This document shows positions 7,475 through 58,411 of a DNA stretch of 64,000 nucleotides, in pieces (the first letter of the stretch is position 1; each line of letters begins with the position of its first letter). The notes beneath the pieces were generated by a model that was not told the origin of the DNA, made no database searches, and worked only from the letters and a program-made list of their open reading frames with translations. Both the position numbers and the translations under genes were made by a program. Source of the stretch: Planctomycetota bacterium (GTDB lineage Bacteria; Planctomycetota; UBA8108; SXIK01); assembly GCA_965223265.1 (NCBI GenBank), contig OZ244999.1, positions 2,112,001 through 2,176,000 on the forward strand, in the 5' to 3' direction.

Positions 7475-7490
7475 CAGAAGTAACAACACC

Positions 7491-41212: not shown

Positions 41213-41242
41213 TTGACACCTTATCGGAGGGTGTGCTACGAT
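41213..41242 (+). promoter_or_regulatory. Putative sigma70 promoter of the pilM/secretin locus
   Basis: TTGACA (41213-41218), 18-bp spacer, extended -10 TGc-TACGAT (41234-41242). Confidence 0.65.
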
Positions 41243-41542
41243 CCAGGGATTCTGCGAAAAACTCTCCTGTCATTGCGGTTAGGGTTTCTGGGTAGAAGTC
41301 TTGAGCACACATTCTGTGGCACGCGAGGCCTTTCAAAGCGGGCGCCTCAGGCGGCGTCTTCGAGGGGGTCCCGGGCCGATGTCTTTGAGCAATAGCTTCT
41401 GAGCCGACCGCGAACTGCTGAGTTCTGATCCCCTAAAATCTCGTCTTCTCGTTTGGCCCCGAGCAGCATGCTCGAGCCGAACCGACGGTGCCGGTTCGGC
41501 CCGGTTTTGCCCGAGCCGGTTTTCAATTGAGGAATAGCGTCC

Positions 41543-43528
41543 ATGGCATTTCGCACGATCTGGTGTGTCGACATCGGCAGGTGTTCGCTGAAGGCAGTGC
41601 AGCTTCACCGCGACCGCAACAACATTGAAATCCTTGCCGTTGACAAGGTCGACTACAGTGCTGGCCCCGATGGCTTCGATCCCGACCAGGCACGCGAAGC
41701 TCTCTCTATCTTTGCTGCGCGAAATGAGATCCGAGATCCGATCGTTGTGATTCATCCAGGTCAGGGAACGTTTATGCGTTTCATCAAGATCCCTGCCTTC
41801 GATGAGAAAAAAATCAACGAGATGGTCGGCTACGAAGCGCAGCAGCAGATCCCGTTTCCACTCGACGAAGTGATTTGGGACTTTCACGTGGTCGATCGCG
41901 ACTACATGAGCGGAGAGGAGCGCGACGTCGGCATGTTTGCCGTCCGCCGTGAAGCGATCGACGACTTTCTCGAAGAGTTCAGCGATGGTGGCATGCAGGT
42001 CGAGATGCTCTCGATCAGCTACCTCGGGATGCACAACTTTGCGGCGTTCGACCTCGACGTCTCTGAGCCGACGATCGTTCTCGATTTGGGAGCCTCACAC
42101 ACTGACTTGATTCTTCTCGATCAAGATCGCTTCTGGATCCGTCAGGTGCCGCACCGTGCCGAGGACATCACGCGTGCACTGATGCAGCGCTTCAAACTTG
42201 GGTTTGCCGAGGCGGAACGCCTGAAATGCCAGCTGGGCAAGAATCCCAAACAGGCGGCTAAGATCTTTCAGGTCGTGATTCAGCCGAAGCTGCGCGAGCT
42301 CGTCCAGGAAGTGCAGCGCTCGATGGGATACTACCGCAACCAAGCGGGTGAGACAAAATTTGAGCGCTGTCTCCTCTTCGGCAACGGGGCCAAGCTCCTC
42401 GGCATCAAGAAGTACCTACAAGACAATTTGGGACTCCCGGTCGAACGCGTAGCGAGCATTAATCACCTGCGCCTCAGCCGTGAAGTCAACGTCAAGTTGC
42501 TGCAGTCAGAGCTGCCGTCGTTCGGCGTCGCCTTTGGTGGCGCCCTACAAGCCCTCGGTGTCGGATCGTCGAACGTTGATCTGATACCGACCGAGGAGAA
42601 GGCAAAAAAAGTCGTCGCGCGCAAACGCATCCACGCGTTCATTGCCGCGGCGATTCTGTGTTTGTGTATTCTCGCGGCGATCGGCATCGTACGGCAACAG
42701 CGGGCGTCTGTGAGTGGAATCGTGGAAGCTGCGCAGACGGCGCGTGAGCATCCGGACACACATAAGGAGCGTGTCGAGCAGCTGCAGACGATCCTCAGCG
42801 AAAAGCTACCGGCAGAGATTGACGAGCTGATCAAGGTGGGTGAGCGACGCAGCGATACGCTGGAGTCGTTTCGCGTACTCTTGGGGATCTTCAAGGACAT
42901 GAAGAATGCCGACGCGCCAATCAAGGTGATTCCTGAGGGCGATGAGGCTGCAGTGGAACGTCTTGTCAGACAGGCAGAGGCGGGACTTGGCGACAAGGTG
43001 TGGCTGCCGTACATGAAGATGGAGCGGATCCTAAAGAAACCGGAATTCGGAGCCTTCGGGGGTGACGAAGACTCCGACAAGCAGAAGGGAACTCCGGCGT
43101 GGAAATTCGATGCGTTCGCCGTCATCAAGGCGCGCGCGAACGTGTCGCTTTCTCATGATGCTCTCCGTGACATGTTCAGTAAGCGTCTGTCGATCGCGCT
43201 GGGCGAAGCGCGGCGGCGCGACGGCAGCCAGTTGACATTTCTCACCAATGTCGACTTGGCGGCAGGTAAGAACCTGGACATGATCCAGATGCAGGCGGAG
43301 GGGGATGCCGGCGCCGGCACTTTCAGCCCGCTCGACGGCGACGACGAGGAGGGCAAGCGAAAGACGCAGCGCGGCGGGCCATACTATGGCGCCATGGCGA
43401 CCTGGCATATCATGGCGGACAAACCGAAGGATCCCGATGCCGGCGAGGAAGATGAAGACGATGAGGATTTCGACGATGACGATGAAGATTTCGACGAAGA
43501 CGAAGACGAGGACACGGACGACGAGTGA
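41543..43528 (+). CDS. pilM: PilM-like actin-fold protein fused to a PilN-like TM/periplasmic part
   Basis: VDIGRCSLKAV, YEAQQQIPFPLDEVIWDF, LDLGASHT, AEAERLK, ELVQEVQRSMGYY, GNGAKL; then VDLIP (PilN INLLP-like), a TM helix, a periplasmic domain and an acidic tail. Confidence 0.88.
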   Translation: MAFRTIWCVDIGRCSLKAVQLHRDRNNIEILAVDKVDYSAGPDGFDPDQAREALSIFAARNEIRDPIVVIHPGQGTFMRFIKIPAFDEKKINEMVGYEAQQQIPFPLDEVIWDFHVVDRDYMSGEERDVGMFAVRREAIDDFLEEFSDGGMQVEMLSISYLGMHNFAAFDLDVSEPTIVLDLGASHTDLILLDQDRFWIRQVPHRAEDITRALMQRFKLGFAEAERLKCQLGKNPKQAAKIFQVVIQPKLRELVQEVQRSMGYYRNQAGETKFERCLLFGNGAKLLGIKKYLQDNLGLPVERVASINHLRLSREVNVKLLQSELPSFGVAFGGALQALGVGSSNVDLIPTEEKAKKVVARKRIHAFIAAAILCLCILAAIGIVRQQRASVSGIVEAAQTAREHPDTHKERVEQLQTILSEKLPAEIDELIKVGERRSDTLESFRVLLGIFKDMKNADAPIKVIPEGDEAAVERLVRQAEAGLGDKVWLPYMKMERILKKPEFGAFGGDEDSDKQKGTPAWKFDAFAVIKARANVSLSHDALRDMFSKRLSIALGEARRRDGSQLTFLTNVDLAAGKNLDMIQMQAEGDAGAGTFSPLDGDDEEGKRKTQRGGPYYGAMATWHIMADKPKDPDAGEEDEDDEDFDDDDEDFDEDEDEDTDDE

Positions 43529-43589
43529 GCGCTACGTCGCGGCTTCGCAGACGTCCTAACCGAACCGACGGAGAGACCTCCCAAAGGCC

Positions 43590-44546
43590 ATGGATTATCT
43601 GAAAAAGAACTGGTACTGGATTTGTCTGGGTATTGCGGGCGCCGGTTTGATCGCTCTTGCCTGGTTTTTCGTCATCAGCCCAACGGTTGTTTCGTCGGCT
43701 GAAGATACGCTGGCGCAAGAAGTGCGACGCGTCGATCAGTATCTCAAGGGTGACATGATCCCTACCGCGCGGTTGGAGACACAGCTCGAGACGAACGTCA
43801 AGAACGTACGCGACGACAGAGACCGCGGCATCGACTACTACAACAAACGGTTGAAGCGGTTCAACGAGTACTTCGACGGCCAGGAGGAGCCGCCGCCGGT
43901 CGGCAGCTTCGCGGCGCGATACACTCAGGAGATGGACCGGCTGATCCAGGCGTATCGTGACGAGAACGAAATCGCTGTTGCCGAGGACGCAGATGAAGCT
44001 GATGCAAAAACTCTGCGACCGGTCGTCGACGTCCAGCCTCCCGGCAGCATCACGCCGGTGAACATGCAGACGACGATGCACGAGTACTGGGTGACGCGGT
44101 CGATTTTCGAGTCGGTGAACGACCTGAAATTGAAGGGCCTCCAAGAAATCCGATTCGACCGCAGTGAAGACGGTGGTGACGAGTCGCCGGCCGAGGAATT
44201 CGCCGCGCTCAAGACGGACGTCAAGATCTCCATGCCGCTTGCTCGGGTCGACGAGTTGGTCGCGGATCTCATGAACGACGATGAGGTGATGTTTCTCTTC
44301 TACGGGTTTGAGTCGCAGAAGGGAGCCATCCCGGCAGAGTTCATGGAGCTAGTGAAGGTCGTAGAGCACGAAGGGCCGCCTGGCGGTCTTGAACACGCCG
44401 AGTTGATTCAGGATGCCCCGGTGACGATTACGCTTGATCTGCGCGTGTTCCTCTGGAAGGCGCGAGATGCGGTCGATCCTCTCGAAGAGCTCGAAGTCGG
44501 GCTGGAGGACGACGAGGAAGACGACCCAGACGACGAAGAGGAATGA
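43590..44546 (+). CDS. PilO-like bitopic membrane protein
   Basis: N-terminal TM, coiled-coil-like region, then alpha/beta C-domain; position after pilM(N); acidic tail. Confidence 0.6.
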   Translation: MDYLKKNWYWICLGIAGAGLIALAWFFVISPTVVSSAEDTLAQEVRRVDQYLKGDMIPTARLETQLETNVKNVRDDRDRGIDYYNKRLKRFNEYFDGQEEPPPVGSFAARYTQEMDRLIQAYRDENEIAVAEDADEADAKTLRPVVDVQPPGSITPVNMQTTMHEYWVTRSIFESVNDLKLKGLQEIRFDRSEDGGDESPAEEFAALKTDVKISMPLARVDELVADLMNDDEVMFLFYGFESQKGAIPAEFMELVKVVEHEGPPGGLEHAELIQDAPVTITLDLRVFLWKARDAVDPLEELEVGLEDDEEDDPDDEEE

Positions 44547-44554
44547 GCTGATTC

Positions 44555-45685
44555 ATGGCCAATAGAAACTTAGCTCAGCACATCGATAAGATTTCGTACG
44601 CGGTCGCGGCGGTTCTCGGCATCGCAATCATTGCCTTGCCGATCGTTGCGGGAAGATCTCTCGGCGATGTCCAGGAAGACCTTCGAAACAAGGTCGATCA
44701 ACTGAAGGAGAGCCGAATGAGTCAAGCGCTGCCGTCGGTTCCCGAACGGCGCACACCAGTGATCGACAATCAGTGGGAGGCTGAGCTGCGGCGTGGTTTT
44801 CCGATTGCGTGGCTGACTGAGCAAGCACCCGCGGTTGTGGTTCACTCCTCGATCGTGCAGACGACTCAGGCCGTCCACGAGGCGGGACGCATCGAAGTGG
44901 TACGCGTCGAGCGTGATTCCGAAACCAAGAAGGCTGGCCTCGCGGTGGTCGGTGTCATGGGCGCCGGAAACGAAGCGATTGAGATTCAGCAGATTCGCTT
45001 GCAACGTGCCGAGATCGACGAGAGTGGATCCGTGGGGCGTTTTGTCTCGGTTCCTGACTTTGACGTAGAAGGCGACTTTGAGTTCGTTGATTGGAACGTT
45101 GAACCGGGCAAGCGCTATGCGTACCGTTTCACGACGATGGCACGGCTCGACCAGGATGCCGGAACGAATGTCCTGCCACCGACGGACACCAACCTGGATT
45201 CGAACGTGCTCGAGACGGAGCAGGCGGTGCCGTATGACCTCAGTGTCAAGCTCAGTACGATTCAAGTCGACCAGGCGTCACTGACCGCTTCGGCGCGCTT
45301 CAGCGTTTTTCGCTACTGGGATTACGAAGCCGGCGCGGTCAAGAGCGCGCGCGGATCGTTCAAGCGTAACGACAAGATTGGTCCCTGGACGGTTGGAGCG
45401 ATCAACGAGGACAAAAAGACTGTCCGCGTCTACAAAACGACCAATAGGCTCCAGTCGTACGTTTTCAAAACGACGGGCGTCGAGCGTCCGATCGAAGGCT
45501 GGGAACAATCGGCAGAATCCGACGACGTCGACGAGGACGAGGAGTCCGCGACAGACGAGTCCGGCGCAGACACTTCGGTGGCCGCGGAGGAGTCCGTCGC
45601 CGCGGAGGAGTCCGCCGACGAGAACGCAGCGGAAGCGCCGACGCCGGAGGAAGGTAGCGCGGCTCGTGGTGGGCGGAGCTTTTGA
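44555..45685 (+). CDS. Bitopic membrane protein with FN3-like beta domain (occupies the PilP/GspC position)
   Basis: N-terminal TM; FVDWNVEPGKRYAYRF resembles an FN3 signature; acidic low-complexity tail. Confidence 0.6.
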   Translation: MANRNLAQHIDKISYAVAAVLGIAIIALPIVAGRSLGDVQEDLRNKVDQLKESRMSQALPSVPERRTPVIDNQWEAELRRGFPIAWLTEQAPAVVVHSSIVQTTQAVHEAGRIEVVRVERDSETKKAGLAVVGVMGAGNEAIEIQQIRLQRAEIDESGSVGRFVSVPDFDVEGDFEFVDWNVEPGKRYAYRFTTMARLDQDAGTNVLPPTDTNLDSNVLETEQAVPYDLSVKLSTIQVDQASLTASARFSVFRYWDYEAGAVKSARGSFKRNDKIGPWTVGAINEDKKTVRVYKTTNRLQSYVFKTTGVERPIEGWEQSAESDDVDEDEESATDESGADTSVAAEESVAAEESADENAAEAPTPEEGSAARGGRSF

Positions 45686-46311
45686 TCACCGCTCGAAGCT
45701 CCGAATTGATACCGAACGTAGTGAAATGACAGCAGTAGGAGGCAAGGAGAAAAAAGGTAGATTTTCGCGTTGGAGGGTGGGAACATAGTCATTGAGTCGG
45801 TTGCGCCCATGGCGACCGCGATGAACCTCGGAGCTTTCGGGGTGGTGCTTGAAAGCTCTCTCAGCGTCCTTGCTGTTGGTTCGCGCGGCGAGCTTCAGGG
45901 TCTCGGCTTGAGGATGCGCCGCTGAGCCGCACTTCCGGTTTGGGTCTCGCCAGCCAGGTGCAGCAGACGCGTAACATAGGCGCTGGCGTCGTCTCCTACC
46001 CCTCCCTCATCGTTCTACCGGTGGCTCTCCTGTTCTGTGTCTCTGCACAGAGTCCTCCCTAAGATTTGATTGATTCCGAGAACAACAGTCGATCGTTTGC
46101 AACGCTCTGTTGTTTTCAGCCTTTCGTTTATGACTCTGATCCTGATGCAAAGAACCTCTGGCAGGAGCCCAGCATGAAGATTCTGACTCAGAATCGGATG
46201 CGAGTCTCCCGTCGCGAGCGGATTGCTCAAGATAGATTTGCTCAAGAGATGACACGGCAAGAGATTCCAACTCGGGGAAGCCTAGGGGTTTTCCCAGGGA
46301 AAGGGACTTCG

Positions 46312-49230
46312 ATGAATTGCACCTGGCTCCGATTCGTTTTCACATGGATTGCACCGCTTGTCTTCGGGTCTGTGCTCGTCGTCGGCTGTACGAGTAACGG
46401 CGTTGCCGAGCGGGCGATGCGTGCGCGCGCATCCTCAACCGAGCAGCCGGAGTTTCGCGGTGCGGAGCGTGACCGTCGCTCCCAGCTTGATCGTGACTCT
46501 TTTACCGGTGAGTCGGAGCTGCGTCGTTCGCGGATCTACGGCGGTGGCGGGCCCGAAGAAGACGCCGACGAACTCGATCGGTTGCTTGATGAACTAGCGA
46601 ACGAAGCCGAGTTGGACTCGGAGCTTGACGCCGAGGTCGCTGATGACGAGGCGGATGAGCTGATGGAAGACCTCGGCGCTGACGGCGACGTCGCCGCGGA
46701 CGAGATCGCCGAAGACGACGACGGAGGGCGCGACCGGCGCCGAAGCGTCGCGGAAGAGCTTGGATTAGAGGACGACGAACCTGTCGCACCTCGCTCGCGA
46801 CCCGCGCGGCGTGAACGCGGCGGCGGTGTGGAGGCACTGAACCGTTCCGCATCGGTGCGCGAACAAGAGGCCAACGAGCTCGCGCGCCTGGCAGGCGAAG
46901 CGATTCAACGCTTCGAGCTCCAGAAAGCCCGAAGTTACTTGCGCGACGCCGAACGCTTGAGCCCGAACAATGAAGCGGTGCAGCGGTTGAAGGCGGAATT
47001 AGCCGTTCTCATGGGAGACGTTGGCGCTCGCCCTCAGGCTGCCGTGGACATCATTCGCATGCAGCAAATCGCGACCGAGCAGGCCGTCGTCGAGGTGCAG
47101 CAACGCGTCATCAACGCGGAGCGGTTGACCGACGAAAAGAAGTACGCACAGGCAATCGCAGAGTACGAGCGGGCGCAGAGGGTGATTCAAAACTTTCCGT
47201 ATCACCTAGGTCTGACCGACAGGGAGCGGAATATCTCAACGAGACTCACGGAGCTGCGGCGACGCAAGCAGGAGCAGGATGCGCGAGAACGACAGCTCTT
47301 GCAGGATCAGATCCGAAACGACCTCGAGGGAGAGCGACGGACGGATGCCCAGCTCGTTCGCGCTAGAGTCGGTGAATTGCAGCGGAAAGCCGAGGGGGCA
47401 GAAGCGGCGAACGACTACGAACGTGCGATCAAACTCTACGAAGCGATTTTGGCACTGAACCCACAAGATCGCGACTCGAGGACGGCCCTGAACAGGGTCC
47501 GGGAAATGCGCCACCGCTTCCGGCTGGACGAGCTGCGGCAGCTAGCAGATCAAAATTACGATCGTGCAGTCGTTGGTATCGAGGAGAGCTCGATCGTCTA
47601 CCAACAGATCTTCCGCTACCCAGATCGCGAAGAGTGGATTCGCTTGGCGCCGAAGGATTTGACGCTTGCGGAGCAGATCGAGGCGAGCGAATCGGAGCAT
47701 GAGCGAGAGATCAAGCGCAAGCTCGCCGAACCAGTCGGCGACGTGATTATCGACGACCAACTGCCGGTCAGCGAAGTGCTGCGCAACCTGCGTGAGATCT
47801 CCGGGCTCAACTTTGTGCTCACCAACGAAGGAGCCGAAGTCGAAAATGCGCAGATCGCGGGTGCGGAATACAGCAATCTACCGCTGGAGAACGTCCTGTC
47901 GTTGATCCTACGGGCAATCGGCGCGGTGGACGGCAAACCGTACGCCTACGCGATTAAGGACGGCGCGGTCGTCATTGGGCCGCGTGAGAGCTTGAAGCTG
48001 CCCGAGTATCTGATCTTCTATGACATCAGTGACCTGGTGAGCCGACGCCCAGATTACAAGGCGCCCCCACTGGCGCTGGACGAGCTGGCCGGGAAGAGCG
48101 CAGGTGCTGAGGGCGGCGGTATTCTCCCCGAAGAGGATGACGTCGGCGACGATCCGATCGGTGGCGAGAGACTTCTCGAGCTCATTCAAAGGGAGTTGGC
48201 CGGTGACGGCGAAGAGGAGGAAGATCAAAGTGGCATCGCCCTCTTTGGAGCGAAGCTCTCCGCGCGGACGACACTCGAGAACCACTTGAAGTTGGCGCAA
48301 CTCTTGGAGCAGTTCCGTAAGTCGATCGGCGTCATGGTGACAGTTGAGTCTCGCTTCCTCGACATTCAGGACAACTTTCTCGAGGAGATCGGCGTCGACT
48401 TCGGTAGCGGTGGCAACACGTTCCTGCCGAACACCATTCCCGACGTCGACGGCGCCGGAACGAGTGTCTCGCCAGGATACGAGTATGTCAATCCACAGGG
48501 TGACTACAACGCCAGGGTGGCGTCCATAGGACAGCTCAGTACTCCTCTTGGTTCGGCAGTCAACCCGTTCAACCTTTCGGCGGAGGGCGGCGGTGCCTAT
48601 CAGCTCAACGTCTTGAAGGCTGAGCGTTTTCAGCTCGAGGCGATTCTTACCGGCGTCGCTAAGGAGCAGGAAATTCGTAAGCTGAATTCGCCGCGCGTGA
48701 CGGCGTTCAATGGCCAGACGTCGCACACGCTCGTGGTGAACCAGAGCGCCTACATTCAAGATCTCGAAGTCAACCAGACCGGTGTGATCCCGGTCATTAA
48801 CCCAGTGATCGGAGTGCTCAACTCGGGCTCGATTCTCGAAGTGCGCCCGACACTCAGTTACGATCGTAAGTACGTCGTCCTCGAAATCCAGCCGACGCTG
48901 GCCGAGCAGCTTGAGAGCGACGTGGCGATTTTGAACCTATCCGGAAACTTCACTGTCGTTCCGGTCGAGCTACCGGTGCTTTCGGTGACGAAGATCAAGA
49001 CCACCGTCACGGTTCCAGATGGTGGGACGGTGCTGGTTGGAGGATTGAAGCGCGAGATTTCTACGAAGACGTCGATCGGAATCCCCGGATTGCTGGACAT
49101 TCCGGTCGCGAATTTGCTCTTCGGCCGTAAAGGTCAATCCACGCTCCGGTCCAATCTTTTCGTTCTTTTGAATGCGAAGGTGACGGTCGTTCACGAAGAG
49201 GAGGCCCGTCTTTTCGGCGATCTGCAGTAG
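46312..49230 (+). CDS. Secretin-family (GspD/PilQ-like) lipoprotein with TPR region, paralogue 1
   Basis: Lipobox VVGC; TPRs; VTVESRFLDI..NFLEEIGVD, LNSPRVTAFNGQ, GSILEVRPTLS.D, TTVTVPDGGTVLVGG, IPGLLDIP..LLF; ATG 46312 chosen (purine-rich RBS-like sequence plus signal). Confidence 0.88.
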   Translation: MNCTWLRFVFTWIAPLVFGSVLVVGCTSNGVAERAMRARASSTEQPEFRGAERDRRSQLDRDSFTGESELRRSRIYGGGGPEEDADELDRLLDELANEAELDSELDAEVADDEADELMEDLGADGDVAADEIAEDDDGGRDRRRSVAEELGLEDDEPVAPRSRPARRERGGGVEALNRSASVREQEANELARLAGEAIQRFELQKARSYLRDAERLSPNNEAVQRLKAELAVLMGDVGARPQAAVDIIRMQQIATEQAVVEVQQRVINAERLTDEKKYAQAIAEYERAQRVIQNFPYHLGLTDRERNISTRLTELRRRKQEQDARERQLLQDQIRNDLEGERRTDAQLVRARVGELQRKAEGAEAANDYERAIKLYEAILALNPQDRDSRTALNRVREMRHRFRLDELRQLADQNYDRAVVGIEESSIVYQQIFRYPDREEWIRLAPKDLTLAEQIEASESEHEREIKRKLAEPVGDVIIDDQLPVSEVLRNLREISGLNFVLTNEGAEVENAQIAGAEYSNLPLENVLSLILRAIGAVDGKPYAYAIKDGAVVIGPRESLKLPEYLIFYDISDLVSRRPDYKAPPLALDELAGKSAGAEGGGILPEEDDVGDDPIGGERLLELIQRELAGDGEEEEDQSGIALFGAKLSARTTLENHLKLAQLLEQFRKSIGVMVTVESRFLDIQDNFLEEIGVDFGSGGNTFLPNTIPDVDGAGTSVSPGYEYVNPQGDYNARVASIGQLSTPLGSAVNPFNLSAEGGGAYQLNVLKAERFQLEAILTGVAKEQEIRKLNSPRVTAFNGQTSHTLVVNQSAYIQDLEVNQTGVIPVINPVIGVLNSGSILEVRPTLSYDRKYVVLEIQPTLAEQLESDVAILNLSGNFTVVPVELPVLSVTKIKTTVTVPDGGTVLVGGLKREISTKTSIGIPGLLDIPVANLLFGRKGQSTLRSNLFVLLNAKVTVVHEEEARLFGDLQ

Positions 49231-49325
49231 AAACCGGGCGCCGAATCGCGCTGAAGTGGAAGCTTCGGAGGTGATGCGGCGAGCGGCGAGGTGAAGAAGA
49301 GCGACGGTGAGCGAGCGCGAAGTGC

Positions 49326-52202
49326 GTGGCTGAGACTTCTTGCAGCGAGATGACTGAACGCGGACATTCTCTCTTTCCGGGAAGGGCGAGTGGGTCACGG
49401 TTCGCTGCATTTTGTCTCAGCGCGATATGCTTGATTCCCGCACCTCTTGTAGGTTCTGCTGCTTGGAGTCGAGAAGATGCTGCGTTCGCCGAGTTCCTCA
49501 TCGTGTCGCTGGGTTACTTTGACACGGCCGAGCGGTGGCTCGCTCAGAGGGCTGCGGAGTGTCGTGACGAGTCGTGTCGTGCCGAGGTCGACTCGAAGCG
49601 TCTCGACGTGCTGCGCCGGCGTGGCGACACGAAAGCCCTGGAAGCCGCGCTGAAGAAGTTTCAGGAAGACTACCCGTGGCACGGGAGGGCTTCTCTTGCC
49701 GACCTCGAGCGTGCAAGCGAAACGCTGACCGCGATCCGGGCTGATTTGGAGCGTGCTGCTGGCGCCCCGAGTTCGGAGGCGGCGAAGATCTATTCTTCCG
49801 CACGAAGCCGATTCGCCGAGCTCGACCGTGGGATGGAAGGATTGATCAAGTCGTTTGAGAAACGTCTCCGGTCCAAGTCGTCGGATCAGGACGAGTCAGA
49901 GCGATTGGTGCGCAATCGCGACCAGACCGAGCTCGCGCGCATCAAGTTTCACCTCGTCTATGCTCGCCGACTGCCGATTGACGCGAAAGACCGGCTGCGT
50001 ACGCTCGAGAGAGGACTCAAGCTGGCCGACGAGTTCGTGTTCGAGCGGGCTGACTTCTACGTCATGCAGTACGATGCGCAGCTGCAGCGTGGCCTTCTCG
50101 CCTACGAGCTCGGCAAGTATGTGATGGCGGAATCACACTTGAGTGCTCTCTACTCGGCGCCTCCGCAGGGGCCGCCTCCCCACTCTTCTGAGCTTCTAGA
50201 TCTCCTCAAAGAGTTGCGGTTGAATGCGCTCTTATTCGGCAGCCGCGCGCTCAATGCTGCGACGAACTTCCGCGTCGCCAGCGACACGCTCAAAAAGTTC
50301 GCCTTCACGGCGGACCCGGACGATCCTATCGATCTCACAAAAGTGCGCGATGACCCTTCTTTGCAGCACTTCGGCGTGCTCCTCGATCTAGAGTACGGAG
50401 TGGCGCTCGTTGGTTCGGGGGCGCGTGACGAGGGCTTCGCTGCGATTCAGCGCGTGATCGCCGATTTTCGCGACAAGAGTGATGCGGTCTCGCAGGGATT
50501 CGTGACCGACGCACGGCGTGCCCTTGGTCGAATTGCAGCGGTTAAGGGAGTTGATCTTCGTGGTCGTGACGTCTACGAAGCGGCACAAGGCCTCAAGAGC
50601 GAGCTTCGCTTCGCCGACGCTCTCGATGCTTTCCGCGATGCTCTCCGTGTGTCGTCGGAGAGAGAGCTCCCTGAAATGGGCCCACTCTGTCTGAATGAAA
50701 TCGGCGAGCTTCTCTTTCTGCTCGACCGTTTTCACGAATCGGCGGTTGCCTACGCGGAGCTGTTCGGGTCCTTTCGCAGCAGCGTGGCGGAGAGTGCAAT
50801 CGCCGCCAAGGCTGCCAACAACTTCGTTGCGGCCGTGACCAAAAGCATGGAGTTGACTCCTGGCGGGCAGGATAACGAGGTGCTTCAGAAGCTGAACGCT
50901 GAAGCCAACAGAGCATACGAACGCTTCGGCGGCACCGGCCTGGCGTCGGAAGAAGCCCTGATGGCTCAGGCGCAGCAATTTGAGGCTGACGGTGATTTCG
51001 AGCGTGCGCGCGAGACTTATCTCAAAGTGCGGCCCGTCGTCGAAAGGAAGGATTCCGAGACCAAGGTGCCTTTCTATTGGCGCGCCCAGGCGAGTGCCGA
51101 AGCGATGCTGTTCGCGTCTTGGCGCAGCACTCAGGGAGAAGGCGCGAGCCAGAGTGAAGTTGACATTTCCGAGGTCGTCAATCGTCTCAAGGAGATTCAA
51201 CCGCAAGCGCTGAATGACGGTGACATTGGCGGTGCGGCGACTGCGACGCTGACGCTCGGGCAAATTCACTACGAGCAAGAAGATTGGGCCGCCGCTGTCG
51301 ATTTTCTCCAGCCGTTTGCAGATGGCTCGCTTCAGGGTGCAGATGAGCTGATCTGTGCGGGCTTGGGTTTTTTGACTCTGGCTTATGTGCGGCAAGGGCA
51401 GTGCGAGCCGGCACAACAGCACTTCGATGTGATGCGCCGCGAATTCAAGAAAGAGTGCGCCGACGCACCGATCTTTGCATTTGCTGCCCTCGATCTCGGC
51501 GACTGTTTTTTCGCTGCTGGCGATGCCTCAAATGCAGCCTTGTACAGTCTTTCCTTCGCACTTCACGGTACATCCAAGGATGACCTGCGAGATTTCGACA
51601 CGCTGGTGATGGTGGCATCGCGCCTTGCGAGCGGAGCCGAAGTCGCTAAGGGCCGTCGACGGAAAGTGTTCGTCCAGCAAGCGAGCCGGTTTCTCAGGGC
51701 TGCGAAGAAACGCAAATCAGCAAAGAGTTCGGAGTCGCGGCGACAGTTGGTCCTGATCGAAGCCAAAGTCCTCGCGCTCAGCGGCAAGGAGGCTGCCGCT
51801 GAGAAGAAGCTGCTGTCGTACGTCGAGCGCTTTGGTGCGGCGAAGGGAGAAAACCACGAAGATCCCTTCGTCTTTCGTGACCTAGCCGAGCTGTTGTGGA
51901 AAGAGCGCGAAGATGGGAGGCGAACGACCAAGCGAGTCGAGTCTGCCGCGAGATACTACGAAGCGGCGTGCGCATTGTTGGAGCGACGACTGGTGGGGCA
52001 GCCACAGCTGCAGAGCATGTTTTGGCAGTGGGCTCTGCAGATGGTTCGCGTGCGGCTGTTTCTCGCCGAAGCTGGCGATGCGAACAGTCGCGGAAGAATT
52101 ATTACGTTCATCAAGCCAAGACTTGGTTCCGAGATGGGCGGGCTGAAAAAGGAATTTCGTGCCGTGTTGGCGCGAGTGGAGAGGCTCAATGAAAAGACGT
52201 GA
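49326..52202 (+). CDS. Large exported TPR/alpha-solenoid protein
   Basis: 958-aa ORF with a signal-like hydrophobic segment and many TPR-like helical pairs (LGQIHYEQEDWAAA, LGDCFFAAGD); start uncertain. Confidence 0.8.
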   Translation: MAETSCSEMTERGHSLFPGRASGSRFAAFCLSAICLIPAPLVGSAAWSREDAAFAEFLIVSLGYFDTAERWLAQRAAECRDESCRAEVDSKRLDVLRRRGDTKALEAALKKFQEDYPWHGRASLADLERASETLTAIRADLERAAGAPSSEAAKIYSSARSRFAELDRGMEGLIKSFEKRLRSKSSDQDESERLVRNRDQTELARIKFHLVYARRLPIDAKDRLRTLERGLKLADEFVFERADFYVMQYDAQLQRGLLAYELGKYVMAESHLSALYSAPPQGPPPHSSELLDLLKELRLNALLFGSRALNAATNFRVASDTLKKFAFTADPDDPIDLTKVRDDPSLQHFGVLLDLEYGVALVGSGARDEGFAAIQRVIADFRDKSDAVSQGFVTDARRALGRIAAVKGVDLRGRDVYEAAQGLKSELRFADALDAFRDALRVSSERELPEMGPLCLNEIGELLFLLDRFHESAVAYAELFGSFRSSVAESAIAAKAANNFVAAVTKSMELTPGGQDNEVLQKLNAEANRAYERFGGTGLASEEALMAQAQQFEADGDFERARETYLKVRPVVERKDSETKVPFYWRAQASAEAMLFASWRSTQGEGASQSEVDISEVVNRLKEIQPQALNDGDIGGAATATLTLGQIHYEQEDWAAAVDFLQPFADGSLQGADELICAGLGFLTLAYVRQGQCEPAQQHFDVMRREFKKECADAPIFAFAALDLGDCFFAAGDASNAALYSLSFALHGTSKDDLRDFDTLVMVASRLASGAEVAKGRRRKVFVQQASRFLRAAKKRKSAKSSESRRQLVLIEAKVLALSGKEAAAEKKLLSYVERFGAAKGENHEDPFVFRDLAELLWKEREDGRRTTKRVESAARYYEAACALLERRLVGQPQLQSMFWQWALQMVRVRLFLAEAGDANSRGRIITFIKPRLGSEMGGLKKEFRAVLARVERLNEKT

Positions 52203-52281
52203 ATCGACGTCGACGGCTCCGCGTGCACCTGGTTCGGCCCGTTCTGCGCGGGGAATGGTCTGCGTGCCGCGTCGCGTTCGA

Positions 52282-53316
52282 ATGCCCATGCGTCCACTGA
52301 ACGTCAGTCTTGGAGTTGCGCACCTCGCGGTAACGGCGGGGCTGTTCTGCTTTGCGGGATTCGCCGCGGCTGACGAGATCGAGTTGGTCTCCGGTAGTCC
52401 CCGCAAAAACGTCAAAATTGTTCGAGCGACTTATGAGGAAATCGAATACACGCTCTCGGGAGCGGGGAAGTCGACACAGAAGGAGCCTGCGGAGCGCGTC
52501 CTTTCGATCACCCGCGCGACGTCGAGCAATGATTTGCGCGCTGGGCGTGCGGCACTGGAGCGCGCAGACTACGACACCGCGATCCGGCGACTTGAGGCGA
52601 TTGCCAAGGCTGCTGCGGATTGGGAACGCGCCGAGGCGGCGTATCTGGTCGGACGAGCGCTCGCTGCCAAGGGAGAGCGCAAGAAGGCAGCAGCGCAGCT
52701 GCAGCAGTTTGTCGAGGAATTCGGTCCAGCAAAGGACTGGTGGGTGCCTCACGCTCTCAACGACTTGGGGGACATCCAGATCCGCGGCAAACGTGCCGCG
52801 TCGGCGAAAAAGTCGTTCGCCCGACTCGGGAAGCTTGGTGGCCGCTGGGAATCGGCGGCCACGGTCGGCGCGGCTCGCGTCGCCATCGCCGAACGTGACA
52901 AAGACGGATACCGCGGTGTACAGGAGAAACTTGGCTCGATTCTACGCAGTAGAAACGCCCCGCGACAGCTGAAGGAAGAGGCGGCACTTCTACGTGCAGA
53001 GATTTTTCTTCTACGTTCCCAGGGTGATCGTGCACTCGAGGAGTTGGGTCGGATCTTCTTTGACGCCACAGCGTCAAGCGAGGCCGGCTATTCCGCCCGA
53101 CGCGCTGCTGCATACTTGCTCGCAGGCAAAGCGGAAGCCAGCAAGGGAGGAACGGGGAATCTTCAGAAAGCAGAGATCCATTTTTTGAAAGTCGCGGCTC
53201 TTTTTCGCAACCAGGGCGAGGTCTATCGCGACGCCTGCAGCGAGCTGGCGAAAATCTACACTCAACTGAAACAGCCGAAACGAGCTGACCACTGGAAGAA
53301 GCGCGCCAAGGAGTAG
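52282..53316 (+). CDS. Exported TPR protein with small N-terminal beta domain
   Basis: Signal ending FAAA-DEIELVSG; TPR helices; AEIHFLKVAALF; start uncertain (52159/52189/52282). Confidence 0.8.
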   Translation: MPMRPLNVSLGVAHLAVTAGLFCFAGFAAADEIELVSGSPRKNVKIVRATYEEIEYTLSGAGKSTQKEPAERVLSITRATSSNDLRAGRAALERADYDTAIRRLEAIAKAAADWERAEAAYLVGRALAAKGERKKAAAQLQQFVEEFGPAKDWWVPHALNDLGDIQIRGKRAASAKKSFARLGKLGGRWESAATVGAARVAIAERDKDGYRGVQEKLGSILRSRNAPRQLKEEAALLRAEIFLLRSQGDRALEELGRIFFDATASSEAGYSARRAAAYLLAGKAEASKGGTGNLQKAEIHFLKVAALFRNQGEVYRDACSELAKIYTQLKQPKRADHWKKRAKE

Positions 53317-53318
53317 AA

Positions 53319-54140
53319 ATGATTGATCGACAACTGGACATGGGTCGTTCGACTCGGTCGACCTGCCCGCGTCAAAGGCTGATGCCGACCACACTCCTCC
53401 ACCCTGCGGCTGGGAGCGTCGGAGCGCGCGCTGCCTTTTTGTGCATGCTCTTCGTGGTCACCGGGTCTCTCCTCATCGATCCTGCGTTCGTGTTTGCCCA
53501 GGAGTCAGCCTCACAGCGTACGATGTTCGACAACGTGATCAGCGGTGGAGTTGTCGGATTCGTGATCATCCTGTGCTCGTTCGCCGGCGTTGCCCTGGCC
53601 GTAACGTTTTTCATGCAGATTCGGCACGACGTGCTCATTCCTCCCGAGGCACAAGAGCATGTGCAGGAGCTTCTTGACCGCAGCGATTTTCGCGGCGCCA
53701 TGGAGTTTTGCGAGGAAGACGATTCATTCTATTCCCGCGTGTTGGCACCCGGGTTGAGTCGAGTCGACGAAGGGGTCGACAGCATGCGTGACGCCATACA
53801 GGAAACCGGGGATTTCGAAGGCTCGAAGCTCCGTCAGAAGATCGGCTATCTGGCGCTGATCGCATCGGTGACGCCGATGCTCGGTCTGTTTGGTACGGTC
53901 AAAGGTATGATCGGGACGTTCAACACGATCGCGGACGCCGACACGCAACCGAAGCCTGCGCAGCTCGCCGATGGCATTGGCGAGGCGCTCATGACGACGT
54001 TTCTGGGACTGTTGGTCGCGATCCCGATGCTTGTGCTGCACTATTTCTTCAGGAATCGGCTCGCGAACATTCTGTTCGAGGCCGGGGTTCTTATGGACGA
54101 CATGACGCGGGCCCTCAAGGGCCAGCGGCGAGGGGCGTAA
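53319..54140 (+). CDS. exbB: MotA/TolQ/ExbB proton channel protein
   Basis: TPMLGLFGTVKGMIGTF and LADGIGEALMTTFLGLLVAIP. Confidence 0.92.
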   Translation: MIDRQLDMGRSTRSTCPRQRLMPTTLLHPAAGSVGARAAFLCMLFVVTGSLLIDPAFVFAQESASQRTMFDNVISGGVVGFVIILCSFAGVALAVTFFMQIRHDVLIPPEAQEHVQELLDRSDFRGAMEFCEEDDSFYSRVLAPGLSRVDEGVDSMRDAIQETGDFEGSKLRQKIGYLALIASVTPMLGLFGTVKGMIGTFNTIADADTQPKPAQLADGIGEALMTTFLGLLVAIPMLVLHYFFRNRLANILFEAGVLMDDMTRALKGQRRGA

Positions 54141-54144
54141 GCGC

Positions 54145-54627
54145 ATGCGGCGAACTCAAGCTGACGAGTCAGCAACCGAAATCGACATGACTCCTCTTAT
54201 CGATTGCGTGTTTTTGCTGATCTTGTTTTTCCTCTTGACCACGCAGATGGTGGCGCAGATTGAGGAAGTCGAGCTGCCGATTGCGCTGGAGACTCGAGAG
54301 CCCCCGAAAGGGCTCGCGGACAAGCCGCTCGTGATCAACGTCGTGCCAGGGAACCAGGAAGACGTGGGAGAGATTCGCTTCAGCGGCCAGACGATGACCC
54401 CTGAAGAACTCGAGAAGGCTCTTGCGGCCGAAGCACGATTCGATGCGGAAGCGCCGCCGCATGGCCGTGGTCGAGGCTGGGAGACGGTTGACGGCGGTCG
54501 GGCGTCGAAGCTGCGTGTCGTCGTGCGAGCCGACACCAACGTGTACTTCGAGTTTGTCGAAGCTGTGATGATGGCTTGTAGCAAGGCGAAAATCTACAAG
54601 ATCGAGGTCGCCTCGCTCGAGCCATGA
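54145..54627 (+). CDS. exbD: ExbD/TolR family protein 1
   Basis: DMTPLIDCVFLLILFF with the essential Asp; VVVRAD. Confidence 0.92.
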   Translation: MRRTQADESATEIDMTPLIDCVFLLILFFLLTTQMVAQIEEVELPIALETREPPKGLADKPLVINVVPGNQEDVGEIRFSGQTMTPEELEKALAAEARFDAEAPPHGRGRGWETVDGGRASKLRVVVRADTNVYFEFVEAVMMACSKAKIYKIEVASLEP

Positions 54628-54676
54628 CTGCACTTGTTGATTGCGATGTGTTAGCACTCATTTCATTGGAAGCAAG

Positions 54677-55261
54677 ATGAAGTTCGGACGACCAGACGTC
54701 GAAGACATGAGGCCGAATCTGACGCCGATGATCGACATCATCTTCCAACTTCTCATCTTTTTCGTCTTGACCGCCAAATTTGTCGCCTTGGAAGGGCAAC
54801 TGCAGGCGTACCTTCCAAAGGATCGAGGCGCTGACGGCCCGCCGATGCCGCAGTTGGCTGACGACGTGCTCCTCTTCCTCCATCGCGTCGAAGACGAGAT
54901 CATCTGCAGCACGATTAACTATCAGTTCGGTGACGTCTCCAAACCCGAACATCGTTTTCCACGAGATCCAACCTCGCAGCGCACTGCCTCAGGGGGGTGG
55001 TCGACGCAAACGACGTGGGGCGAGGGTGACAACCGGGTCGATGTAAGCCTTGATTACGCGGCTCCCCATCTTGCAGACGTGGAGAAGTACCTTCAGTATC
55101 GCAGCGAGCAGTACAAAGTGAGCGGCATCAGCGCTAAGGGTCTGCCAGTTGAGCTAAAAATCGCCGACGACGTGGAGTGGCAGATGGCGGTGGCGCTTCT
55201 CGATATCTGCAAGCGCGTCGGCATCACCGATGTGACGTTTGCCGGCGACGAGAGCGGCTGA
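54677..55261 (+). CDS. exbD: ExbD/TolR family protein 2
   Basis: NLTPMIDIIFQLLIFF with the essential Asp; EGQLQAYLP; LLDICKRVGI. Confidence 0.9.
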   Translation: MKFGRPDVEDMRPNLTPMIDIIFQLLIFFVLTAKFVALEGQLQAYLPKDRGADGPPMPQLADDVLLFLHRVEDEIICSTINYQFGDVSKPEHRFPRDPTSQRTASGGWSTQTTWGEGDNRVDVSLDYAAPHLADVEKYLQYRSEQYKVSGISAKGLPVELKIADDVEWQMAVALLDICKRVGITDVTFAGDESG

Positions 55262-55636
55262 CGGAACGTCACGGATGTTTGGAGAATGAAAGGATTGCGA
55301 GCTCGAAACTAACCGGATTCTTTCACGTTTGAGGCCGCGGCGGCTCTCACGAGCTGCACCCCGCGCTGGCGACAGAAGCCGCGTCGAGGGTCCTGGTTAG
55401 GGCCGGAAGCCGGGAACGGAAAACCGGGGTTTCGCTGATTTTTCTAGCCACTTTTCGTCGCCGATGGTGGATCATCGAGGACTCTGCTCATCTCGTGAGC
55501 CTTCCTCTCGATTCACAGTCTCTCGATGCCAGTCGGTCCCGTCCGTTTCCGACCGAAGAGCTGGTGTCGTTCAATCCGTTAGAATGAAGTTGAGTTTGAA
55601 CCCGAAGGGTTTATCTCTGTGTAGAAGGAGCCCCTC

Positions 55637-58411
55637 ATGTTGACTCCGATTGTTGGAGTGGACGCACGACGCGCCTTGGCGTTGTGCCTGACTGCTATGC
55701 TTCTCTGGACTCTTGGCTGCGGAAGTCAGGAGTCGATTAGCGAGCGGCGTCGGCAGGCGCAAAGGCAGTTGCCGACGCGTGGCGCGAGCGAGTCAGAGCC
55801 GGTTGGCGAGACGAGCGCGCCAGTCGTCGACCAGCGCGAGGACGGTGCTGCGAGCGACGGCCGCGATGAGCTTGACGCACTCGGTCTCGACGACGATGCG
55901 GACCTCGACGAGCCGGACGATTTCGCCGATGCGGGTGACCGTGGGCGCGTTCGAGAGGGCGGCCGGGAGTCGCAGGCTCTGGAGCATTTCCGCCGACAGC
56001 TCTCGCTGCGGGAAAAAGAAGCGCGCTACCACAAGAAGGCAGGCGATGGCTTTTACCAGCAGGGGCGATTTGAGGATGCCGTCGCGAGTTATCGACGCGC
56101 TCTCGACCTCGACCCGGGTTTCGAGGCGGCACGTGAGCGGTTACTCGACACGCAAGAGATTCTCGGTGATCGCCCTGCCGCAGTATCGAACGCTCCCAAC
56201 CTGATTGAAGAAGAAAGAATTCGCCGCGAACAGAGAACGATCGAAATCAACCGCGCGCTTCGCGACGGCGAGGAAGCCTTCAACCGCGGCGAGGTTGACG
56301 AGGCGGAGCGGCTCGTGCAGCGGGCCGTCGATGCGATTCGAACTGATCCTGATTACGATCCAGATCAGCGCGCGCGGGCGCAGAATCTGCTGGAGCAGAT
56401 TCGTTCCCAAATGGAAGAGGTTGCCGCTGTCGTGCGAGACCAGCAACTCCAAGAAGCGCAGCGCCAGCAACAACACGAGCTCGAGGCGGAAGAACGGCGC
56501 AAGCATGAGCGAGTTCAGGTGCTTCTGCGAAAGGCTCTCGATCTTCGTCGCAAGCGTCGCTATCAGCAAGCTGTCGTCGTTTGTGAGCAGATTCTGACGA
56601 TCGAACCGGCGAACCGAATTGCTCGGTTTTGGCTCAACTCGTCGAACGAGGAGCTGATCAAGGAGCGACGTCTACGCTTAATCCACGATCGCGATATCAA
56701 CCGCAAGCTGCTCAACGAGAACATGCGTGAGGGCTCGATTCCCTACAACGACGTTTTCGTGTTTCCGGATGCCGACGACTGGGAGCGTACACGCAGCCGC
56801 TCTTCCACTCTGCAGTTCGGTACCGAGACTGTTGACTCGGAGCCGGTGCGGCGCATCAAGTCGATTCTGGAAAGTCGGCAGATGGACCTGCCGTATGACG
56901 AGGCCACCCCGCTGAGCGATATCATCGCAGACTTCAGGAATCTCCTCGGCATCAACATTGCGATCGATCCCGAGATCAACACCGACGAGAACCCGATTAG
57001 CATCAACGTTCAGAACGTGTCCGCCAAGAACGCTCTGAATCACGTGCTCGAGAAAGCCGGTCTTGGCTATAGCTTCCGAGACAACCTGCTGTACATCACG
57101 GCGCCTGAGAAAGCGACAGGTGACCTCAAGTTCGAGATCTACGACGTCTCGGATATTCTCAACAGCATCCGCGATTTCGCCGGTCCAGAGCTGCAGCTGA
57201 GGAGTCCTGGCGACACCACCTCCGGGGAACAGTCCATTGTCTTCACCGACGATCCGGGTGAGGCTGGCGATCAGACGATCGACTCCGATCAACTCATGGA
57301 GCTCATCGAAGGCAGCACCGGTGGTGAAGATGCATGGGGCGACCAGAACTCGATGGAGGAGCACAACGGCAGCCTCCTAGTGACTGCGTCTGCCGACATG
57401 CACGCGGGGATCGAACGCGTCCTCGCCAACCTTCGAAAGGACTCGGATCTCTTCGTCGTGATCGAGGCGCGGTTCATTGATATCAACGACGATTTTCTCG
57501 AGGACGTGGGTATCGACTCTCGAGCGCTCGGCGTCGTCAATAACTTTGGAACGCCGTTTGGAAACGTCATCAATGACACGAGAACCGGTGGCCAAGACCT
57601 CGGTTTCTCTAAGACTGGAAGCCCCACGCGCGACGTGACCCTGATCATGGGCCAGGACCGCTGGGCGGGTCGTATCGCCCACGTGATTGATGGCTTCACT
57701 GGCAGTTTCCGCCGTAACGGAAACCTGAACGCCGGTGGTGGAATCGGCGGTTTGACCCTTCAGCAAACTTGGCTCGAGCCGTTTCAGATCAACACGATTC
57801 TACGTGCGGTTCAGGAGCGTGCGGACGTGCGCCAACTTACGGCGCCAGTCGTGACCGCTGCGAACAATCAGCGCGTCTACGTGTCGGTCATCACCCAACG
57901 TGCGTACATCGCCGACTACGAGCTGGTCTCCGGTGGTACCGGTTTTGCGATCATCGAGGTCGCGGACCCGGTTGTTCAGACTTTCCAAGAGGGTGTGATC
58001 CTCGACGTCGAGCCGGTGATCTCCCACGACAAGAAGTACGTAACGCTCGACGTCAGGCCAACGCTTGCAACGTTGATCGGTGGCATTATCAGCACGATCA
58101 ATATCAGCCTAGGAAGCTTTACGAACGTCGCGTTCCAGGTGCCCATTGGCATCCCGGAGATCTCGCTCCAGCAGTCGTTCACCTCGGTCACGGTGCCGAA
58201 CCGTGGCACGGTCCTTTTGGGTGGGTTCAAGAGCCTCGACGAAGGTCAGTGGAAGTCGTACCTGCCGATCCTTGGGGACATCCCTCTTTTCGGGAATCTG
58301 TTCCGCAGGAAATCGACCGTGTCGGAAAAGCGGAGCTTAGTGATTCTGCTGTCAGCGACCATCGTCGATCTTCGCGTCTCCGAGAAGCAGAAGTTCAACG
58401 AAGCCGATTGA
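55637..58411 (+). CDS. Secretin-family (GspD/PilQ-like) lipoprotein with TPR region, paralogue 2
   Basis: AAGGAG RBS; lipobox TLGC; TPRs; VIEARFIDI.DDFLEDVGID, LTAPVVTAANNQ, GVILDVEPVIS.D, TSVTVPNRGTVLLGG, LPILGDIPLFGNLF. Confidence 0.9.
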   Translation: MLTPIVGVDARRALALCLTAMLLWTLGCGSQESISERRRQAQRQLPTRGASESEPVGETSAPVVDQREDGAASDGRDELDALGLDDDADLDEPDDFADAGDRGRVREGGRESQALEHFRRQLSLREKEARYHKKAGDGFYQQGRFEDAVASYRRALDLDPGFEAARERLLDTQEILGDRPAAVSNAPNLIEEERIRREQRTIEINRALRDGEEAFNRGEVDEAERLVQRAVDAIRTDPDYDPDQRARAQNLLEQIRSQMEEVAAVVRDQQLQEAQRQQQHELEAEERRKHERVQVLLRKALDLRRKRRYQQAVVVCEQILTIEPANRIARFWLNSSNEELIKERRLRLIHDRDINRKLLNENMREGSIPYNDVFVFPDADDWERTRSRSSTLQFGTETVDSEPVRRIKSILESRQMDLPYDEATPLSDIIADFRNLLGINIAIDPEINTDENPISINVQNVSAKNALNHVLEKAGLGYSFRDNLLYITAPEKATGDLKFEIYDVSDILNSIRDFAGPELQLRSPGDTTSGEQSIVFTDDPGEAGDQTIDSDQLMELIEGSTGGEDAWGDQNSMEEHNGSLLVTASADMHAGIERVLANLRKDSDLFVVIEARFIDINDDFLEDVGIDSRALGVVNNFGTPFGNVINDTRTGGQDLGFSKTGSPTRDVTLIMGQDRWAGRIAHVIDGFTGSFRRNGNLNAGGGIGGLTLQQTWLEPFQINTILRAVQERADVRQLTAPVVTAANNQRVYVSVITQRAYIADYELVSGGTGFAIIEVADPVVQTFQEGVILDVEPVISHDKKYVTLDVRPTLATLIGGIISTINISLGSFTNVAFQVPIGIPEISLQQSFTSVTVPNRGTVLLGGFKSLDEGQWKSYLPILGDIPLFGNLFRRKSTVSEKRSLVILLSATIVDLRVSEKQKFNEAD

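Follow-up and report, generated by a model that had tools for sequence, protein, structure and literature searches.

A conserved planctomycete gene cluster that combines PilM, secretin and ExbB/ExbD genes

Gene content of the locus

We analysed a cluster of ten genes, g1 to g10, in a Planctomycetota bacterium (assembly GCA_965223265.1) that combines a PilM gene, two secretin genes and an ExbB/ExbD-type proton channel set. It occupies 41543-58411 of the window, by which we mean the whole analysed stretch of 64,000 nucleotides (contig OZ244999.1, positions 2,112,001 to 2,176,000, forward strand); positions refer to the window unless given in Mb or as coordinates of a genome or contig. A first-pass annotation of this DNA had listed ten co-oriented genes, among them PilM, two secretins with tetratricopeptide repeats (TPR), two further TPR proteins, ExbB and two ExbD genes. 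All are present: the listing of open reading frames (ORFs) in the window returns the ten at the same coordinates, every one on the plus strand, and Pfam and NCBIfam searches identify the families named (Table 1). The 9.18-Mb genome holds no further copy of the cluster.

Table 1. Genes of the cluster and a candidate promoter upstream, with window positions and predicted features (TM, transmembrane).
Feature	Position	Strand	Description
Sigma-70-like promoter match	41213..41242	+	Candidate; TTGACA-18-TACGAT, TG before -10; 10/12 positions; 300 nt upstream of g1
g1	41543..43528	+	N-terminal PilM actin-like ATPase-fold domain (1-340), TM segment (~358-380), periplasmic region, poly-acidic tail
g2	43590..44546	+	Bitopic; N-terminal TM helix, coiled coil, ferredoxin-like domain; Amuc_1100/PilO-like predicted fold
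g3	44555..45685	+	Bitopic; N-terminal Q-x-x-D-K motif, TM helix, FN3 domain (105-228), second beta domain, disordered tail
g4 (secretin 1)	46066..49230	+	Lipoprotein; N-terminal TPR (TPR_14), C-terminal secretin domain (PF00263, 70 bits)
g5	49326..52202	+	Exported 958-aa TPR solenoid protein; weak TPR matches only (Pfam); signal-peptide-like N-terminus (hydropathy)
g6	52159..53316	+	Exported or anchored YbgF/CpoB-like TPR protein; signal-like N-terminus
g7	53319..54140	+	ExbB/TolQ-type proton channel subunit; PF01618 MotA_ExbB, 99 bits
g8	54145..54627	+	ExbD/TolR paralog 1; TM aspartate D20; PF02472, 74 bits
g9	54641..55261	+	ExbD/TolR paralog 2 with an insertion; TM aspartate D32; PF02472, 53 bits
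g10 (secretin 2)	55637..58411	+	Lipoprotein (LGC lipobox); TPR_2 (44 bits), STN, PF00263 (81 bits)

The N-terminal domain of g1 is recognised by PilM_2 (Pfam, E 2e-34), and the best NCBIfam match of the protein is Amuc_1101_fam, to which we return below. In g1, labelled "pilM(N)" earlier, the PilM_2 domain is fused to a TM segment; PilN (PF05137) was not detected in it by Pfam. A run of about 30 Asp/Glu residues occupies the periplasmic C-terminus (43430-43525). The two secretins, g4 and g10, are paralogs with 28-29% identity across about 850 residues. Because the Cys of the g4 lipobox (VVGC) falls at residue 108 of the listed ORF, the true start of this gene most likely lies near M83 (near 46312) and not at the listed position. 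The STN domain of g10 scores below its threshold (23 bits, cut-off 28.4). A profile of g5 matches TPR proteins of the BamD, LapB and CpoB type at E of about 1e-5, and g6, which probably starts later than its listed GTG, matches tol_pal_ybgF (TIGR02795, E 2.6e-9). The TM aspartate is invariant in both ExbD paralogs (D20 of g8 in 10/10 and D32 of g9 in 12/12 aligned homologs). Complex prediction for the periplasmic parts of ExbD1 and ExbD2 with g6 returned no verdict, at a score of 0.00.

Neither g2 nor g3 belongs to a family by sequence in Pfam or NCBIfam, so that their earlier descriptions as "pilO-like" and "FN3-like" stand at the level of the fold only. The g2 model, built from a 10-row alignment (predicted local distance difference test score, pLDDT, 64.7), contains a TM helix, long helices and a ferredoxin-like domain. 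When it was compared with the PDB using Foldseek, all of the top ten matches were Amuc_1100 of Akkermansia muciniphila (E 1.3e-4), with PilO next (4.8e-3); VIA-align gave Z 12.3-12.6 over 161-166 residues for Amuc_1100 and Z 8.5 over 91 residues for PilO (2rjz). Amuc_1100 was not detected when the sequence profiles of g2 and g3 were run against PDB sequences. The g3 model (pLDDT 68.5) had no PDB match at E<=0.001 in Foldseek, and its FN3 domain came from a wide VIA search (Z 9-10, root-mean-square deviation 2.5-3 over ~95-100 residues); at the sequence level, a profile of g3 finds titin FN3 (E 3e-4). Nothing PilP-like turned up among the g3 matches, which tested residues 105-232 well. Near its N-terminus g3 has an invariant Q-x-x-D-K motif, a candidate for the TonB/TolA-like transducer that the locus lacks.

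The first-pass annotation had also placed the ten genes between a promoter and a terminator, which the counts of such sites do not back statistically. Four promoter-like sites were observed in the region against 3.5 expected from shuffles, and 26 weak terminator-like sites against 18.6 +/- 4.8. No Rfam family was found in the window at gathering thresholds. The 983 bp upstream of g1 (40560-41542), which hold no convincing ORF or Rfam match, are long for a gene-dense window.

Conservation of the cluster in Planctomycetota

Homologs of g5 are found in 40 of the 41 genomes of our class sample; the genome that lacks one is 89% complete. We compared gene order within the class in 20 stretches around g5 homologs, taken from 20 genomes of six families on contigs with room, using tblastn and ORF-level blastp. 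Fourteen of these stretches show the order PilM...Sec1-TPR958-TPR385-ExbB-ExbD-ExbD-Sec2 in one orientation (Sec1 and Sec2 being secretins 1 and 2), and four more end at a contig edge yet fit the same order; the last two are considered below. The ortholog of g6 upstream of ExbB is likewise conserved in relatives. Compact relatives with 3-Mb genomes carry the genes in tight succession, as in stretch L029, whose ten genes span no more than 15.3 kb and are separated by at most about 55 nt. Since the order is conserved in relatives, the arrangement of the genes is more than chance.

Beyond the class, one stretch per family was drawn for 20 families from the best-scoring PilM-like matches listed with downstream room, which makes this a biased sample. 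PilM, secretin, ExbB and ExbD genes are co-oriented in eight of these stretches, four or five of which have a second secretin after ExbD. PilM and a secretin alone were seen in 4/20 (two of them cut by a contig end), and two stretches were too short to judge. Run as a synteny check, the comparison finds the ExbBD and TPR genes conserved between two secretin genes in the 14 class stretches, an arrangement that recurs in looser form in the eight from other families. The g5 family itself is small, with 100 cluster representatives at E<=1e-30 among 1.84 billion, and its closest atlas clusters come mostly from Planctomycetota. Together with the lack of FtsZ in this genome, these taxa speak for Planctomycetota and against an assignment to Verrucomicrobiota. 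In the literature covered by our search, no publication describes the cluster in Planctomycetes.

We built trees of the secretins and of ExbB with quick IQ-TREE runs, in which branch support came solely from the Shimodaira-Hasegawa-like approximate likelihood ratio test (SH-aLRT) and the midpoint root served for display. The 51 cluster secretins all fall into a single clade (SH-aLRT 99), and six other secretins of this genome lie outside it; a seventh (5.534 Mb) failed the query filter and is absent from the tree. Within the class, Sec1 (18 rows, SH-aLRT 100) and Sec2 (17 rows, 98) are each monophyletic, and the duplication therefore predates the class. In a genome-wide scan the two cluster secretins have the lowest PF00263 scores of the genome's nine (75 and 85 bits vs 122-183).

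The cluster ExbBs also group together, apart from the only other ExbB of this genome, g7 being one of just two. The other ExbB/ExbD pair (G000:C1:3843000-3858000, minus strand, 2582-14387) follows genes for a 938-aa protein of no family and a 1139-aa TPR protein and is itself followed by a gene for a 1348-aa PD40 (TolB-type) protein. This second locus may be a Tol-like system, and in it, too, a giant TPR protein accompanies the motor.

Relation to the Akkermansia MUL loci and to other envelope machines

The first-pass annotation had named two separate Akkermansia loci, both needed for mucin uptake. One of them, which would be MUL1, is putatively a TPR and ExbBD locus. Published descriptions likewise have two distinct loci: MUL1, with amuc_0544 as mul1A, which "resembles the Sus system", and MUL2, which spans amuc_1099-1102 and includes the PilM-like 1101 and the pilin-like 1102 (PMC13174399). 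Both are tied to the accumulation of mucin in internal compartments (PMC12418764), and Amuc_1100 is described as PilO/PilN-like within Amuc_1098-1102 (10.64898/2025.12.30.696933).

As Akkermansia-type proxies we used two metagenome-assembled genomes (MAGs; G437 and G438) that were among 29 stretches matched by the published 16S primer AM1; the A. muciniphila type genome was not among them, and an rpoB primer published for A. muciniphila matched none of the contigs. G438 bears a true Amuc_1101-family gene (857 bits), whose neighbours match Amuc_1100 (E 5.7e-14) and Amuc_1102 (7dsz, E 5e-34) in the PDB. The order at this locus is a 208-aa protein, a PilM fusion of 615 aa, proteins of 335 and 357 aa, and a TPR-secretin of 879 aa, and g1 to g4 have the same order and similar sizes (661, 318, 376 and ~970 aa against 615, 335, 357 and 879). 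In both PilM-TM fusions (~615-661 aa) the PilM domain is N-terminal. g1 is the genome's best match to the Amuc_1101 family (233 bits vs 110 for the canonical PilM), and the G438 gene finds g1 as its reciprocal best hit (152 bits vs 70). Amuc_1098-type secretins share the TPR + secretin architecture of g4 and g10, and the secretin tree places an Amuc_1098-type pair as the sister group of the cluster secretins (SH-aLRT 90). The Amuc_1099-type protein agrees with g3 in position, size (357 vs 376 aa) and bitopic topology but shows no sequence-level similarity to it. The first half of the cluster, g1 to g4, is thus related to MUL2. Unlike MUL2, this module runs straight into the TPR genes, ExbBD and a second secretin.

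For the second half of the cluster, the ExbB nearest to g7 in an Akkermansia-type genome belongs to a locus that reads ExbB-ExbD-ExbD-TPR (1038 aa)-305 aa-TonB-dependent receptor. This locus is likely the MUL1 counterpart, because it fits the "Sus-like" description. Like g5-g9, it comprises a single ExbB, two ExbD proteins and one large TPR protein, whereas the order is permuted and the outer-membrane partner is a TonB-dependent receptor in place of the secretin found here. The TPR/ExbBD half of the cluster is only weakly linked to MUL1.

Two other arrangements were seen in the proxies. In G437, an Akkermansiaceae MAG, stretch L103 (G437:C40:7000-26999), 1770-12633, contains a PilM fusion, a 449-aa gene, a TPR-secretin of 811 aa, a Sel1-repeat protein of 708 aa and a 274-aa secretin-domain ORF, that is, two secretins without ExbBD. 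In G438, a second TPR-secretin, 47% identical to the Amuc_1098 ortholog, lies amid housekeeping genes (TruB, FAD synthetase) in stretch L102 (G438:C5:1-20000), 3473-6142.

With the PilMNOPQ set of type IVa pili the locus shares the PilM domain, the PilO-like predicted fold of g2 and the C-terminal secretin domain. It differs in that PilM is fused to its membrane partner and that the two TPR-lipoprotein secretins belong to a separate clade; the PilN, PilO and PilP families were not detected at the locus with Pfam or NCBIfam. Using seven ATPase queries from this genome, we found no T2SSE ATPase, of the PilB or PilT type, in the 64-kb window or in 40 related planctomycete stretches; PilC (PF00482) was not searched. 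Nor did the window and these stretches contain a credible prepilin N-terminus, the one regular-expression match lying deep inside a 379-aa ORF. The earlier remark that no ATPase, pilin, TonB or TonB-dependent receptor is visible therefore holds for the window, and for ATPase and pilin it extends to the 40 related stretches.

Compared with the 5:2 motors ExbB-ExbD-TonB and TolQ-TolR-TolA, the locus has ExbB and ExbD above the Pfam cut-offs with the TM aspartate kept, whereas it carries two ExbD paralogs, has TPR proteins and secretins as partners, and lacks TonB, a TolA-type transducer and a receptor. The genome's only TonB_C lies at 1.759 Mb beside a TonB-dependent receptor (1.757 Mb), and a second receptor is also encoded in the genome. 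In NCBIfam, g7, g8 and g6 score best against TolQ (74.8 bits, cut-off 221), TolR (43.9, cut-off 127) and YbgF (37.7, cut-off 90.1), all sub-threshold, as is the ExbB match of g7 (63 bits). These matches would suit a Tol-Pal-like envelope tether in which the ExbB, ExbD and YbgF-like proteins energise a connection of inner and outer membrane, with secretin rings as outer-membrane anchors, and which serves envelope integrity or budding division of a cell lacking FtsZ and not transport. In line with such a role, crateriform structures are described as press-stud-like connections between membranes (PMC5394234). The cluster is also near-universal in the class (40/41 genomes), and FtsZ was not found in this genome. 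A tether is nevertheless improbable, as Pfam and NCBIfam found no TolA, TolB or Pal in the locus and as the second ExbB/ExbD locus, with its 1348-aa PD40 TolB-type protein and TPR protein, is the better Tol-like candidate. Secretins, moreover, are gated pores and not anchors.

Flagellar motors offer an analogy only, in the TPR-scaffolded stators of Campylobacter (PflA/PflB) and in PilMNO-like cages (10.1101/2025.02.19.638559, PMC10823254). There, TPR and PilM/N/O-type proteins surround a stator of the MotAB/ExbBD type; the locus contains no flagellar genes. The Agl-Glt gliding machine of Myxococcus likewise combines TolQR-type motors with large TPR proteins. The cluster could encode an Agl-Glt-like surface motor or a machine that uses the proton-motive force to secrete a polymer, such as holdfast, slime or fibre material, through secretin nozzles. 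A role of secretins as slime nozzles has been reported for cyanobacteria and myxobacteria (PMC12475490), and TPR scaffolds are reported to hold MotAB stators in complex flagellar motors (10.1101/2025.02.19.638559). Against export or surface transport, which we consider quite improbable, speak the lack of polysaccharide synthesis or export genes of the Wza/Wzc type within the cluster and the link of MUL2, the closest characterised relative, to uptake (PMC13174399).

A putative proton-driven secretin apparatus

We consider it likely that the ten genes constitute one conserved functional system of Planctomycetota. A full account of this system as an envelope-spanning apparatus for polymer import driven by the proton-motive force is more tentative, and we place it somewhat short of an even chance. 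PilM with its fused membrane-spanning segment, the Amuc_1100/PilO-like bitopic g2 and the FN3 bitopic g3 would form an inner-membrane platform; the two paralogous TPR-lipoprotein secretins, of a clade specific to the Planctomycetes-Verrucomicrobia-Chlamydiae (PVC) group, would supply the outer-membrane pore or pores, and the two exported TPR proteins would join the apparatus. The ExbB-ExbD1-ExbD2 stator would turn the proton-motive force into mechanical work on periplasmic and outer-membrane parts, relayed to one secretin gate or to both by the TPR proteins or by g2 and g3. Most likely, the apparatus would use energy to let large polymers, polysaccharides above all, pass the outer membrane and enter the enlarged periplasm, and planctomycetes would have in it their equivalent of the Akkermansia MUL system. 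That the parts assemble into a single complex, that the motor acts on the secretins, which way transport runs and what is carried are inferences, and we offer proton-driven secretin transport as a well-motivated hypothesis. The cluster is a new variant of the MUL-type envelope systems of PVC bacteria, which are known but mechanistically unsolved.

A number of observations weigh against this account, and the first group concerns secretion ATPases. PilM normally works with PilB-type ATPases. Every one of 59 class genomes has 4-16 T2SSE hits, and a class-wide test for the absence of ATPases is thus uninformative; this genome has 12 such hits elsewhere, including three ATPase pairs (3.667, 5.105 and 6.557 Mb) without a secretin nearby. 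The locus might accordingly contribute to a filament machine resembling type IV pili or type II secretion systems, with ATPase, platform and pilins supplied in trans and ExbBD and the TPR proteins as accessories for gating or retraction. Established systems have PilM as a cytoplasmic component that partners PilB, PilT and PilC. Pili-like fibres that emanate from large crateriform structures bind dextran (PMC5394234), and MUL2 includes the pilin-like Amuc_1102 (PMC13174399).

Such a filament machine is unlikely, however. Besides the lack of ATPase and prepilin genes in the window and in the 40 related stretches, a canonical pilM-to-secretin (pilQ) set is encoded separately at 2.847-2.853 Mb. 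By coordinates, five of the seven other secretins have an ATPase within 24 kb, whereas the cluster has its nearest ATPase at a distance of 53 kb, closer to another secretin, and the cluster secretins stand in a clade apart from the others of the genome. About 57 kb past the window end there is a 4527-aa ORF (G000:C1:2233696-2247279, plus strand) with a C-terminal secretin domain that is the genome's best (183 bits); a T2SSE ATPase gene (2222626-2224293) lies 10-23 kb upstream of it.

A second group of points bears on the unity of the cluster. Two of the 20 class stretches, both from family f5 (L026 and L027), carry TPR958, ExbB, TPR385 and ExbD without secretins, with PilM on another contig, and a lone PilM-like gene was found in 6/20 other families. 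Because of these cases, the linkage of the PilM and TPR/ExbBD modules is not obligatory. In the genome studied here, each secretin gene has an intergenic gap of 375 nt or more in front of it. The cluster could comprise two unrelated neighbouring systems with separate functions, one of PilM and secretin and the other of TPR proteins, ExbBD and secretin, a division for which these gaps, the f5 stretches and the separation of the modules in Akkermansia-type genomes would speak. We regard this as very improbable: ExbBD lies between two paralogous secretins of the same clade in 14 of the 20 class stretches, an arrangement that recurs in other families, the gaps shrink to near zero in small-genome relatives, and the two Akkermansia loci share a phenotype (PMC12418764). 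As a detail of family f5, two near-identical ExbB copies flank the small TPR gene in L026 (G022:C43:1-16150), 1252-7695.

The last group limits the kinship with Akkermansia that the proton-driven import account invokes. The score of g1 stays under the Amuc_1101 cut-off (NF045709, an equivalog model; 233 vs 650 bits, model positions 47-445 of 608), which none of the 2.9-Mb genomes of family f6 reaches either, so that these are not taken for Akkermansia, and the Amuc_1098 family (NF042912, cut-off 750) is reached by neither g4 (69 bits) nor g10 (114 bits). Alignment by hhalign with the Akkermansia-type orthologs was not significant for g2 and Amuc_1100 (probability 11.6) or for g3 and Amuc_1099 (1.4), and the G438 orthologs of Amuc_1102, Amuc_1100 and Amuc_1099 have no tblastn match in this genome. 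An Amuc_1102-like gene is absent, the 983 bp upstream of g1 having no convincing ORF. The g5 profile finds one 23-bit TPR stretch in G438 and nothing in G437, and it matches two different large TPR proteins of G438 equally (probability 82 and 86); the likeness of g5 to Akkermansia-type TPR proteins is no more than generic. The ExbB link to one Akkermansia-type locus has SH-aLRT 90 with long branches. The comparison with Amuc_1098-1102 proposed along with the first-pass annotation has thus come out in part, in favour of kinship for the reciprocal best hit of PilM, the predicted g2 fold (Z 12.6) and the gene order, but against it for the family cut-offs and the Amuc_1102-like gene.

The account of proton-driven import through a secretin addresses how Planctomycetes carry 10-40 kDa dextran or green fluorescent protein across the outer membrane, and what crateriform structures are composed of. 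Periplasmic dextran uptake by a planctomycete is abolished by the protonophore CCCP (carbonyl cyanide m-chlorophenyl hydrazone; 0/816 cells vs 23% of 1,065), and the outer membrane is connected to the cytoplasmic membrane at crateriform structures (PMC5394234). The uptake system "has still to be characterized" (PMC5394234) and is said to act "via an unknown mechanism" (PMC11131199). The apparatus could be the core of these structures. In its specific form, with the cluster as the core of the large crateriform structure and a secretin gate run by ExbB-ExbD1-ExbD2 instead of an ATPase to import intact polymers, this idea is possible but doubtful. If it were true, the secretin would hold the place that the TonB-dependent receptor has in the related Akkermansia-type locus, and it would be the first secretin known to run on the proton-motive force and to work inward. 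A secretin powered in this way would widen the known roles of secretins.

Akkermansia requires its MUL genes to forage on mucin and to colonise the gut. By joining both kinds of module, the planctomycete cluster predicts that the two Akkermansia loci build one machine, and it narrows down the genes worth deleting in planctomycetes open to genetics. Genetic tools exist for Planctopirus limnophila and Gemmata (PMC5394234, PMC11958385), and P. limnophila mutants lacking three PilQ-like genes, which may or may not belong to this cluster, are reported as viable (PMC11958385).

The remaining genes of the window are housekeeping genes, including those for complex I, beta-oxidation, ComEC, LptD and glycosyltransferases. 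Upstream of the cluster lie a ComEC-type competence channel gene (27038-29425, minus strand) and a 1179-aa LptD-like gene (33885-37424, plus strand), for neither of which a link to the cluster was seen. Glycosyltransferase genes follow downstream of the cluster at 59932-62342.

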